Origin: Pseudomonadota bacterium
GTDB taxonomy: Bacteria > Myxococcota_A > UBA9042
NCBI GenBank assembly: GCA_005777155.1
Contig: SXNM01000318.1
Coordinates: forward strand, 1-59,353
DNA length: 59,353 nucleotides
Direction: 5' to 3'
Shown: in pieces, positions 19,564 to 20,227 of the stretch
How positions within the stretch are numbered: position 1 is the first letter of the stretch
How the letters are laid out: the number at the start of each line of letters is the position of its first letter
Translations under genes and position numbers: made by a program
The notes under the pieces: generated by a model
What the model was told of the DNA's origin: nothing
Databases searched by the model: none
Seen by the model: only the letters and a program-made list of their open reading frames with translations

Positions 19564-20227
19564 CTAGTCGTCTCCGCCCTTGTCGTCGTCATCGTCGTCA
19601 TCGTCGTCATCGTCGTCATCGTCGTCATCGTCGTCATCATCGCTGCTGTCCTCGCCACCTTGGCCCTTGCCATGGACCTGCGCGCTATGGTCCCGCCAGT
19701 CCGCGTCGACATAGGCGAACGTCAACGTCTCCACATCGGCGCCATCGACGCTGGCGACGCTGGTGACGCCCGTCAACGTCACGCCGAAAAACGTTACAGA
19801 CAGCCAGATCTTGCCGTAGCGCCGAATCACGAGCTTGCCGCGTTTCGACACCTTGCCGGCCTGCGCGCGCTGCATGATCTCAGCCGTCGCGAAGTCAAGT
19901 CTTTTGGTGACACGCAGGGCGCCTCCGGGCCCAACGAGCGCCGCGAGCCCCGCGAGCTTCGGCACTTCGGCCGACCAGCCAGAGACGGCGAATGCCCCGC
20001 CCTTGACGCCCTTCAGGCGGAGAGACGCCTCGTAGACCGACGGCAGGGGAGCCGGCGTAGGCAGCGGGTCGCCCTTGCCCTTAGACTTGGCCTGTGCCGA
20101 CGCCAAGGCGGCGCCACTAGCGACCGCGAAGCCGGCCGCGAACGCCGTCTTGAGCCAGTCACGGCGGCTGAGCTTGACCCCGGTCGCGGCACGAGGCGGC
20201 GCCGGGGGGGGTGGGAGTCTGAGTCAT
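19564..20227 (-). pseudogene. Tat-signal + Hcp-like core + poly-Asp tail protein, interrupted by a 1-nt frameshift in a C8 (plus-strand G8) tract
   Basis: ATG 20227 is preceded by AGGAGG. After the C8 run (20204-20211) the main frame reads KLSRRDWLKTAFAAGFAVASGAALASAQA (twin-arginine signal). The core aligns by eye with the neighbouring Hcp. The tail is GEDSS-D(20)-KGGDD. The track ORF 19564..20106 starts only at a TTG inside the signal peptide. 664 nt, so the frame is restored if the tract is 7 nt. Confidence 0.55.
19585..19638. repeat. Tandem 9-bp repeat (GTCGTCATC)x6 encoding most of the poly-Asp tail on the minus strand
   Basis: Six perfect consecutive 9-mers read directly from the sequence. 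The whole Asp run spans 19582-19641. Confidence 0.95.

Follow-up and report, generated by a model that had tools for sequence, protein, structure and literature searches.

The segment from 20227 to 19564 on the minus strand carries the gene for HcpL, a name used here for a diverged Hcp paralog with a Tat signal. The gene is the second of a two-gene module, 89 nt downstream of hcp, and lies in a window (the whole stretch of DNA that was analyzed) of 59,353 nucleotides with a GC content of 68.5%. A Shine-Dalgarno sequence, AGGAGG (20233..20238, minus strand), is located 5 nt ahead of an ATG at 20227-20225. Its equivalent in the relative L021, GAGGAGG, precedes an intact ATG, and the alignment shows the ATG position of the window to be homologous to the start codon of L019 and L021. 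This ancestral start now opens a dead-end frame of 22 codons (20159..20227, minus strand), which is translated as MTQTPTPPGAASCRDRGQAQPP and ends at a TGA (20161-20159). The frameshift site is a run of eight C (C8) at 20204..20211 on the minus strand, read as G8 on the plus strand and one base over. Only two homopolymers of at least 8 bases occur in the 59-kb window, the C8 run being one of them; the other (31074-31081) is G-rich and Shine-Dalgarno-like, shortly precedes an internal ATG in a gene with an HTH domain, and is in frame. A scan of the locus for promoters and terminators found nothing, and no terminator-like site was found between the hcp and HcpL genes of the window.

The main frame of HcpL opens at a TGA (20226-20224) that overlaps the ATG, reads APPRAATGVKLSRRDWLKTAFAAGFAVASGAALASAQA followed by KSKGKG, and terminates as GEDSS-D20-KGGDD-TAG. 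It stays open for 220 codons and has a GC3 (0.81) at the level usual for coding DNA in a window of this GC content. It encodes, without a start codon of its own, a twin-arginine signal peptide (20089..20202) composed of an n-region, the S-R-R-D-W-L-K motif (20169-20149), the h-region TAFAAGFAVASGAALAS and an AQA cleavage site. A Lys/Gly/Pro-rich linker, KSKGKGDPLPTPAPLP (20041..20088, pLDDT <50), which is variable and of low complexity in all members of the family alignment, leads from the signal to the Hcp-like beta-barrel core SVYEASL...DADWRDH (19687..20040), recognized with PF05638, the family profile and AF2/Foldseek. The gene ends with a poly-Asp tract of 20 residues (19582..19641), encoded by 6.7 tandem copies of the 9-nt unit GAT GAC GAC (19582-19642), and the C-terminal KGGDD with its TAG stop (19564..19581, stop at 19566-19564); all of these features are on the minus strand. 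Direct reading agrees with the initial annotation, which had noted a strong Shine-Dalgarno sequence before the start, a C8 tract followed out of frame by S-R-R-x-W-L-K, a hydrophobic region and an AxA site, and the terminus GEDSS-(Asp)20-KGGDD. No ATG, GTG, TTG, CTG or ATH codon is present in frame between TGA 20226 and TTG 20106, and an alternative in-frame start for the Tat signal was rejected because this TTG is the first candidate codon. In public records the window-type gene is called from the internal TTG as a 'hypothetical protein' of 171-180 aa, an annotation that conceals both the Tat signal and the frameshift.

The window protein alone matches PF05638 at positions 52-127 of the 129 profile positions with 20.8 bits (E 5e-4), below the gathering score of 23.5, whereas PF05638 matches all eight family members (E<=1, best E 1.3e-12) and the family profile matches Hcp chains in the PDB over residues 2-151 of 154 (E 9e-12 to 1e-9). 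The Hcp-family relationship proposed in the initial annotation thus holds at the level of the family, but the single protein remains below the Pfam threshold. Its by-eye alignment of the core with the adjacent Hcp was recovered in the same register when HcpL was compared with the partner Hcps profile to profile (hhalign; probability 95%, E 3e-8, 19% identity). In the AF2 model of the window protein the core reaches a pLDDT of 63-86, and the best 50 Foldseek hits all contain the Hcp fold, being Hcp proteins or engineered Hcp1 fusions (best E 1.6e-7, probability 1.00, target TM 0.6-0.8), which bears out the Hcp-like fold expected earlier. By profile comparison and structure prediction, HcpL is a true Hcp homologue with a predicted Hcp fold. 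It was rejected as a recent duplicate of its neighbor because of the low identity (19%) and because it is closer to canonical Hcp1-type proteins than to its partner.

HcpL resembles Hcp/TssD (PF05638; e.g. P. aeruginosa Hcp1, PDB 1Y12) in its homology over the whole domain, its predicted beta-barrel and the position of its gene beside a genuine hcp. It differs in its N-terminal Tat signal and linker, Hcp being the archetypal signal-less T6SS substrate, and in the segment aligning between the SHSWEQP motif of the partner and the next conserved strand, which is replaced by a short hydrophobic segment. Further differences are the low identity to its own neighbor, the acidic tail of some members and a 59-kb window whose scanned ORFs include no T6SS core genes. 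A functional T6SS tube protein carries no export signal, in contrast to HcpL, in which the RR signal is conserved in all members.

An exhaustive search of 1.84 billion protein representatives yielded about eight relatives, and the size of the HcpL family is about eight clusters among roughly 15 billion proteins. Among the GTDB representative genomes only one related locus was detected, in a Myxococcales MAG, and no HcpL relative was found in the JGI metagenome contigs. The literature searched contained no paper on an Hcp with a Tat or Sec signal, in keeping with the initial annotation, to which the architecture was unfamiliar. Hcp look-alikes with a Tat signal form a very rare and apparently undescribed family. 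In 8/8 lineages the gene immediately upstream, in the same orientation, is a signal-less, T6SS-type hcp, while the other neighbors differ; this obligate pairing, the most informative feature of the locus, had been missed in the initial annotation. Identity among members is 25-58% for HcpL versus 50-78% for the partner Hcps, so that HcpL is the faster-evolving of the two. No T6SS core genes were found by Pfam among about 40 ORFs scanned in the window (59 kb) or in the flanks of the locus in L002, and the neighborhoods compared contain no conserved effector gene beside the hcp-HcpL pair.

Every intact relative keeps the RR motif, the hydrophobic region and the AxA site. The pattern [ST]-R-R-x-W-L-[KQR] is present in all eight family members, with an Ala-rich h-region and then an AxA site behind it, and the RR, W and L are invariant in all of them despite the 25-58% identity. 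The n-region is about 19-22 aa long as annotated in six of the eight; in the remaining two, an internal Met is found 19 residues ahead of the motif. The family profile also picks up a PDB chain titled 'twin-arginine translocation pathway signal', matching it in its signal region (E 4e-4); the short Pfam/TIGR Tat-signal models barely register (PF10518 in one of eight members, E 0.034). The Pfam scan of about 40 window ORFs turned up no tat genes. Judged by its conservation, the predicted twin-arginine signal is a conserved, selected feature of this small family.

Hcp-domain proteins with Sec-type signals also exist (P0008-P0010, labelled 'Hcp' by their sources) and rank next behind the family's own members as matches to the family profile (E 6e-5 to 5e-4). 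With HcpL they share an N-terminal export signal, an Hcp domain and the core motif VTK-x-x-D-x-A-[ST]-P-x-L. They differ in that their signals are of the Sec type without an RR motif, in that the canonical N-terminal hairpin of Hcp is complete, and in that the one context visible is not beside an hcp.

The partner hcp (20317..20822, minus strand), identified from its sequence and by comparison with intact relatives, is of the T6SS type, has no signal peptide and is frameshifted. One T has been lost between 20747 and 20746, at codon 26, so that the window reads GGG A-G CAG versus GGG ATG CAR in intact relatives; this frameshift is absent from the initial annotation. After repair the protein matches PF05638 with an E of 1.2e-18. 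L001 and L022-L024 carry the same lesion, and the gene call there is limited to a 126-aa product. Compared with an intact relative of 86% identity, the dN/dS of the window hcp is 0.126, and the gene has 5 unique changes at otherwise invariant columns versus 1 in its sister, a weak hint of relaxed selection. The partner Hcps of the family are 50-78% identical to the Hcp encoded within a complete tssK-L-M-A-B-C-hcp-E-F-G-clpV cluster, and are conserved like cluster-encoded tube Hcps, the C-terminal SHDLRTNVVA included, which suggests that they still serve a T6SS rather than having a periplasmic role.

In HcpL the lesion is an additional C, which lengthens a C7 run to C8 at codon 8; DNA alignment with L019 and L021 likewise shows one extra base in the run of the window. 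With one C deleted in silico, the ATG comes into frame with the Tat signal. The first 26 aa of the repaired protein, as far as the K of the motif, are then colinear at every residue with the product of an intact gene in a closer relative, so that the frame repair envisaged in the initial annotation succeeds. Both lesions are present in five assemblies (the window, L001, L022, L023 and L024), the last four of which were obtained from other samples and show 1-8 SNPs relative to the window. The five were produced from different samples with different pipelines (NCBI, ENA assemblies with k141_ contig names, Logan) and were compared as consensus sequences. Given their recurrence in five independent assemblies distinguishable by SNPs, both lesions are taken to be real. 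All sequences of the window population are at least 99.9% identical, at the SNP level, and the 'fixed' lesions for this reason represent one narrow lineage only. Elsewhere the window consists of intact core chromosome (trpEGDC, pgi, yajC-secDF, recJ and znuA, with ORFs of 500-900 aa), which indicates that the assembly is not error-ridden.

With reproducible disruption of the frame relative to intact orthologues in both genes, the module has most likely died recently, and the window copies of hcp and HcpL are most likely a recent pseudogene pair, as judged from their reading frames. That the loss is recent is indicated by the low dN/dS of hcp and by the HcpL frame, which is still open over its 220 codons with its GC3 preserved. 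The Tat signal is translated in frame from a start codon in the relatives and not in the window, and because the relatives keep the RR motif in frame, the probable pseudogene state is confined to the window lineage. The initial annotation had allowed that the gene might be dead debris; this most likely applies to the window lineage, in which both genes are frameshifted, but not to the relatives.

It is extremely improbable that the extra C is a homopolymer error of sequencing or assembly and that the gene is intact in the organism. The lesion does lie within an 8-base homopolymer, and removal of one base restores perfect colinearity with the relatives; however, the same C8 is found in five assemblies from different samples and pipelines with SNP differences among them, the neighboring hcp has a single-base deletion outside any homopolymer in all five, and the other large window genes scanned (ORFs up to about 900 aa) are intact. 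Sequencing error was rejected on the ground that both lesions are common to the five assemblies, and with it the need to resequence the G8 tract, as had been proposed initially. A small probability is given to conditional expression, in which C8 would be a site of recoding (a +1 slip by tRNA-Pro on CCC-CCC-C) or of phase variation (C8/C7), some cells or transcripts would yield the full Tat-HcpL, and the gene would be regulated rather than dead. The C run occupies codons 6-8, and codons 6-8 at the 5' end are the typical position of contingency tracts. A C run is also a classic +1-prone tRNA-Pro slippery site, and since the shift required is exactly +1, inside a run of Pro codons, some full-length HcpL product is possible. 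Also in keeping with such expression are the scarcity of runs of at least 8 bases (merely two in 59 kb), the intact downstream frame of 220 codons with its in-frame 9-nt repeat and, in our reading, the position of the hcp lesion at G-GGG-A, where a -1 slip would restore the frame as well. Slippage of tRNA-Pro by +1 on CCC-C is known (PMC7577736, PMC4519876). Spontaneous +1 slippage is low in wild-type cells. As in homopolymeric-tract contingency genes, a poly-C run at the 5' coding end sets the reading frame; unlike in those genes, the relatives lack the tract. L019/L021, L002 and the others begin with a plain in-frame ATG, and the tract is consequently not a conserved device. No length polymorphism of the C run was seen between closely related genomes, the consensus sequences having C8 in 5/5 assemblies, and the second, independent frameshift of the partner, at a non-repetitive site with a run of only four bases, is better explained by decay.

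The locus is probably best explained as a two-gene module of hcp and a Tat-signal HcpL, with both genes inactivated by frameshifts here, in which the HcpL of intact members would be exported by Tat and act with the upstream Hcp. The conserved signal suggests that the HcpL precursor would fold in the cytoplasm and then be exported by TatABC, and that cleavage after the AxA site would release a periplasmic Hcp-like domain. Only a slight chance is accorded to the RR N-terminus being an uncleaved inner-membrane anchor that tethers the Hcp-like domain. A long, flexible Pro/Gly/Ala linker follows the h-region in every member, a tether-like layout, and the h-region forms one long helix in the AF2 model (H13-38); but the AxA site is conserved directly behind the h-region in all members, and the h-region of the window protein is short and mildly hydrophobic (17 aa, rich in Ala/Gly/Ser, mean Kyte-Doolittle 1.46), which is typical of cleaved Tat signals and not of transmembrane anchors. 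It is very improbable that the protein functions through its poly-Asp tail, whether as a polyanionic scaffold in the periplasm or at the surface or as a binder of cations or minerals. The window protein combines an unusually basic core (+9) with a tail that holds the 20 Asp and has a charge of -23, and P0002 and P0003 likewise end in acidic tails; five of the eight members have none, so that the tail was rejected as a family feature. Moreover, the tract is a length-unstable 9-nt repeat, with 20 Asp in the window versus 11 in L001 within one population at 99.9% identity, and is predicted by AF2 to be disordered; what the family conserves is the Tat signal, the Hcp core and the neighboring hcp. 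The binder role put forward in the initial annotation finds no support in this comparison, and of its architecture of Tat, Hcp and poly-Asp the first two elements recur in 8/8 members, the acidic tail in only three. Toxins of the Hcp-ET type similarly join an Hcp domain to a C-terminal extension, but the extension in the window is a disordered, acidic, low-complexity tail without a toxin domain, and HcpL has an export signal in addition.

Concerted action of the probably Tat-exported HcpL with the Hcp encoded just upstream is suggested by the invariant synteny and by the joint decay in the window. The version favored, tentatively, is co-export through direct Hcp-HcpL binding, in which the RR-bearing paralog would take the signal-less Hcp with it across the inner membrane. 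It is modelled on Tat hitchhiker pairs such as MelC1/MelC2 tyrosinase, the small and large hydrogenase subunits, DmsAB and PaoABC (PMC4273604). The likeness consists of adjacent genes with an RR signal on one product and none on the other, with hcp-HcpL synteny in all eight lineages. The differences are that no cofactor-containing enzyme is involved, that carrier and passenger would be paralogs, that the putative passenger has an alternative exit route in the T6SS, and that complex formation and co-export are putative for Hcp and HcpL. Hitchhiking is favored by the Sec-signal proteins P0008-P0010, the existence of which implies that the Hcp fold does not itself need Tat, and by the single Sec-signal example with visible context, which does not adjoin an hcp. 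Against it stand the conservation of the partner Hcps, which suggests continued T6SS service, and the size of the cargo, a full Hcp hexamer (about 100 kDa, 85-90 A across) being at or beyond the limit usually quoted for Tat. A T6SS-independent route, in which the Tat-signal paralog hitchhikes the folded upstream Hcp through TatABC into a periplasmic hetero-oligomeric Hcp ring or short tube with an envelope function, and in which the window lineage has lost the module via two frameshifts, is considered rather unlikely. Somewhat unlikely, too, is export of HcpL alone, as a periplasmic T6SS accessory (an immunity-like decoy or sink for incoming Hcp-bound effectors, or an envelope docking element), with the upstream Hcp a purely cytoplasmic T6SS tube subunit. 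In its favor, the partner Hcps are indistinguishable in sequence from cluster tube Hcps (78% identity between L026 and L018). Genes with export signals downstream in auxiliary hcp modules typically encode immunity or accessory proteins, which this role would fit, and so would the much faster evolution of HcpL than of its partner, proteins related to conflict often evolving fast. This proposal is nevertheless purely inferential, lacks a conserved effector gene beside the pair, and gives no reason for Tat over Sec, since Sec-signal Hcp domains exist.

The value of the locus is limited by the extreme rarity of the family, which is known only from uncultured metagenomic lineages, and by the copy in the window being probably dead. 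Hcp is the textbook protein secreted without a signal peptide, and its presence in culture supernatants is the standard read-out of T6SS activity. A subfamily with Tat signals that is always co-encoded with a normal hcp would mean that Hcp-fold proteins also reach the periplasm by a general export pathway. HcpL would be a new accessory gene for T6SS biology in Myxococcota-like bacteria, and the hcp-HcpL pair would offer a natural system for testing how Tat exports an oligomerizing ring protein, possibly by hitchhiker co-export.

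The window locus is best read as one copy, inactivated not long ago, of a module of two genes: hcp (20822-20317, minus strand) and HcpL (20227-19564, minus strand), a Hcp paralog with a signal for twin-arginine (Tat) export. Direct reading of the sequence recovered all HcpL elements listed in the initial annotation, each where it had been placed. An AGGAGG motif (20238-20233, minus strand) lies 5 nt ahead of the ATG at 20227. The frame opened by this ATG has 22 codons, translated as MTQTPTPPGAASCRDRGQAQPP, and ends at a TGA at 20161-20159. The long frame is one base off the ATG frame and begins at a TGA at 20226, overlapping the ATG; ahead of the TTG at 20106 the frame lacks any ATG, GTG or TTG. 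Its translation is LRLPPPPAPPRAATGVKLSRRDWLKTAFAAGFAVASGAALASAQA-KSKGKGDPLPTPAPLP-SVYEASL...DADWRDHSAQVHGKGQGGEDSS-D20-KGGDD-stop, its GC3 is 0.81 in a window of 68.5% GC, and across its Asp tract a 9-nt unit occurs 6.7 times in tandem (19582-19642, minus strand). The two frames join at a C8 run on the coding strand (G8 on the plus strand, 20204-20211), one of two homopolymers of at least 8 bases in the 59-kb window. The other, a G8 run on the minus strand (31074-31081), sits inside a small HTH-domain ORF (30611-31090, minus strand), 5 nt upstream of an internal ATG; it leaves the frame unbroken and is probably a G-rich region for ribosome binding. Public annotation gives the window HcpL as 171-180 aa without domains, starting at an internal TTG.

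In a closer relative (L019 and L021) the HcpL start is in frame (MSLSPDTPAPPGVTGGSKMSRRDWLK...) and hcp is 86% identical to that of the window. With one C removed, the window HcpL is exactly colinear with the HcpL of this relative, and the DNA alignment contains a single extra window base, at the C run. The window hcp reads CAC GAG GGG A-G CAG against CAC GAR GGG ATG CAR in intact relatives; one T is missing between 20747 and 20746, shifting the frame at codon 26. Once repaired, it matches the Pfam Hcp family PF05638 with an E of 1.2e-18, and public annotation holds only a 126-aa C-terminal fragment (P0027). Both lesions are also found in four assemblies of the same population, each 1-8 SNPs away from the window: one NCBI metagenome assembly (L001), two from ENA (L022, L024) and one from Logan (L023).

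Because both lesions occur in four further, SNP-distinct assemblies and the window is otherwise intact, the frameshifts are real mutations. Resequencing of the G8 tract had been advised, and the C8 recurs in five assemblies; a sequencing artefact is very improbable, as the same lesions are reproduced each time. It is also unlikely that the C8 run serves as a recoding or phase-variation site. The shift needed is +1 within CCC-CCC-C, a context known as slippery for tRNA-Pro (PMC7577736, PMC4519876), but the C tract is missing in relatives, has the same length in five assemblies, and the partner hcp is broken at another site. The dN/dS of hcp against L019 (0.126) and the still open HcpL frame indicate that inactivation was recent.

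The remaining window is intact core chromosome with trpE-G-D-C, a MatE transporter, pgi, yajC-secD-secF, recJ and znuA, and also an intact TonB-dependent receptor gene. With hcp and HcpL both broken and the other scanned large genes intact, the pattern fits function as a unit, or a shared dependence on a T6SS abandoned by the lineage. A 250-aa minus-strand ORF at 21757-22509 in the public calls (L001, L022) seems to be a call on the wrong strand of a GC-rich genome; the plus-strand ORF at 21703-22392 has strong methyltransferase matches (MTS, E 3e-15). Genes for a 724-aa DUF2330 protein (22537-24711, plus strand), a Wzy_C (O-antigen ligase-like) membrane protein (26095-28050, plus strand) and a PilZ-domain protein (28542-29783, minus strand) represent envelope and c-di-GMP themes and are not conserved beside the Hcp pair in other lineages.

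The by-eye alignment of HcpL with the neighbouring Hcp was recovered when the two families were compared profile to profile (probability 95%, E 3e-8, 19% identity). Against PF05638 the single protein fell short and the family was clear: the repaired window HcpL reached 20.8 bits (E 5e-4; gathering score 23.5 bits) over the C-terminal 60% of the model only, and 8/8 family members matched (best E 1.3e-12). A seven-member HcpL profile matched the solved Hcp structures 7fcf, 9qpe, 4tv4, 8yun and 1y12 (E 9e-12 to 1e-9), with virtually the full chain covered. An AlphaFold2 model from an 8-sequence alignment had a mean pLDDT of 61.6 (core 63-86; signal, linker and tail <50), and the top 50 Foldseek matches to this predicted structure were all Hcp-fold entries (best E 1.6e-7, probability 1.00, target TM 0.6-0.8).

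Relatives of HcpL numbered two when 5.8 billion clusters were searched by word index and seven (P0001-P0007) when 1.84 billion representatives were scanned exhaustively with HMMER; P0012 came from a second indexed search. GTDB representative genomes contained a single HcpL-type locus, in a Myxococcales MAG, and none was found in JGI metagenome contigs. In all intact members, [ST]-R-R-x-W-L-[KQR] is followed by an Ala-rich h-region and an AxA cleavage site. The RR motif is retained in relatives, and RR, W and L are invariant despite pairwise identities of just 25-58%. Acidic tails are confined to the window HcpL, P0002 and P0003; the proposed cation or mineral-binding role relies on a tail missing from the majority of members. 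The tract is 20 Asp long in the window and in both ENA assemblies (L022, L024) and 11 Asp long in L001 (4510-4542) at ~99.9% identity; this difference within one population marks it as an unstable repeat, and could reflect genuine instability or short-read assembly collapse. One member has a weak match to MelC1, the apotyrosinase chaperone (E 0.045; NCBIfam scan, alignment A4), probably stemming from nothing but the Tat signal region.

Directly upstream of HcpL, on the same strand, every lineage has a signal-less hcp of 166-170 aa; ~55-105 nt separate its stop from the HcpL start, except in L015, whose two gene calls overlap by 14 nt. On the P0005 contig the upstream gene is present as a C-terminus only, ending in the partner's signature ...SHDLRTNVVA. 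The remaining neighbours are unrelated between lineages. In the Myxococcales MAG TH-Jun18-32 (L002), the regions on either side of the intact pair (1-8300, 11266-20495) encode giant proteins of secreted type (1338, 2358 and 2361 aa) with Dicty_CTDC, Lcl_C, FG-GAP, MopE, lectin and RCC1/WD40-like repeats; these are not conserved at other pair loci. Partner Hcps share 50-75% identity and are up to 78% identical (L026) to the Hcp of a complete T6SS cluster, tssK-L-M-A-B-C-hcp-E-F-G-clpV, in a related MAG (L018, 1-16500; GCA_041389985.1), so the pair hcp does not form a clade separate from cluster hcp. The NCBI label for the cluster of the L018 Hcp is Myxococcales. Judged by sequence, the partners are ordinary T6SS tube proteins.

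The conserved signal suggests that a folded HcpL precursor would be exported via TatABC and cut after AxA, leaving an Hcp-like domain, tethered by a linker, in the periplasm. The tentatively favoured version is a Tat hitchhiker pair, in which the signal-less Hcp would leave together with the RR-bearing HcpL. MelC1 is a classic hitchhiker carrier, and MelC1/MelC2 and the hydrogenases are such pairs. PaoABC is a Tat hitchhiker (PMC4273604), and pairs of this type have the same gene layout as hcp/HcpL. About equal weight is given to export of HcpL alone, as a periplasmic T6SS accessory; the partner is still conserved to the degree of a functioning tube protein, which fits this rival and is the main point against a hitchhiker. 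The hitchhiker version is preferred because the Tat-bearing family is the one always beside a signal-less paralog. The next-best profile matches, P0008-P0010, are full-length Hcp-domain proteins from metagenomes with classical Sec-type signal peptides, one labeled by JGI as 'type VI secretion system secreted protein Hcp'. Unlike HcpL, P0008 (L029), the sole one with visible context, has no adjoining hcp. Their existence raises the question why HcpL would use Tat rather than Sec.

The HcpL family is extremely rare, has no host in culture, and is represented in the window by a copy that is probably dead. No report of Tat- or Sec-signal Hcp-family proteins was found in the literature searched. 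The Hcp fold and the Tat signal are each known; their combination, with an invariant gene partner, is, as far as searched, previously undescribed.
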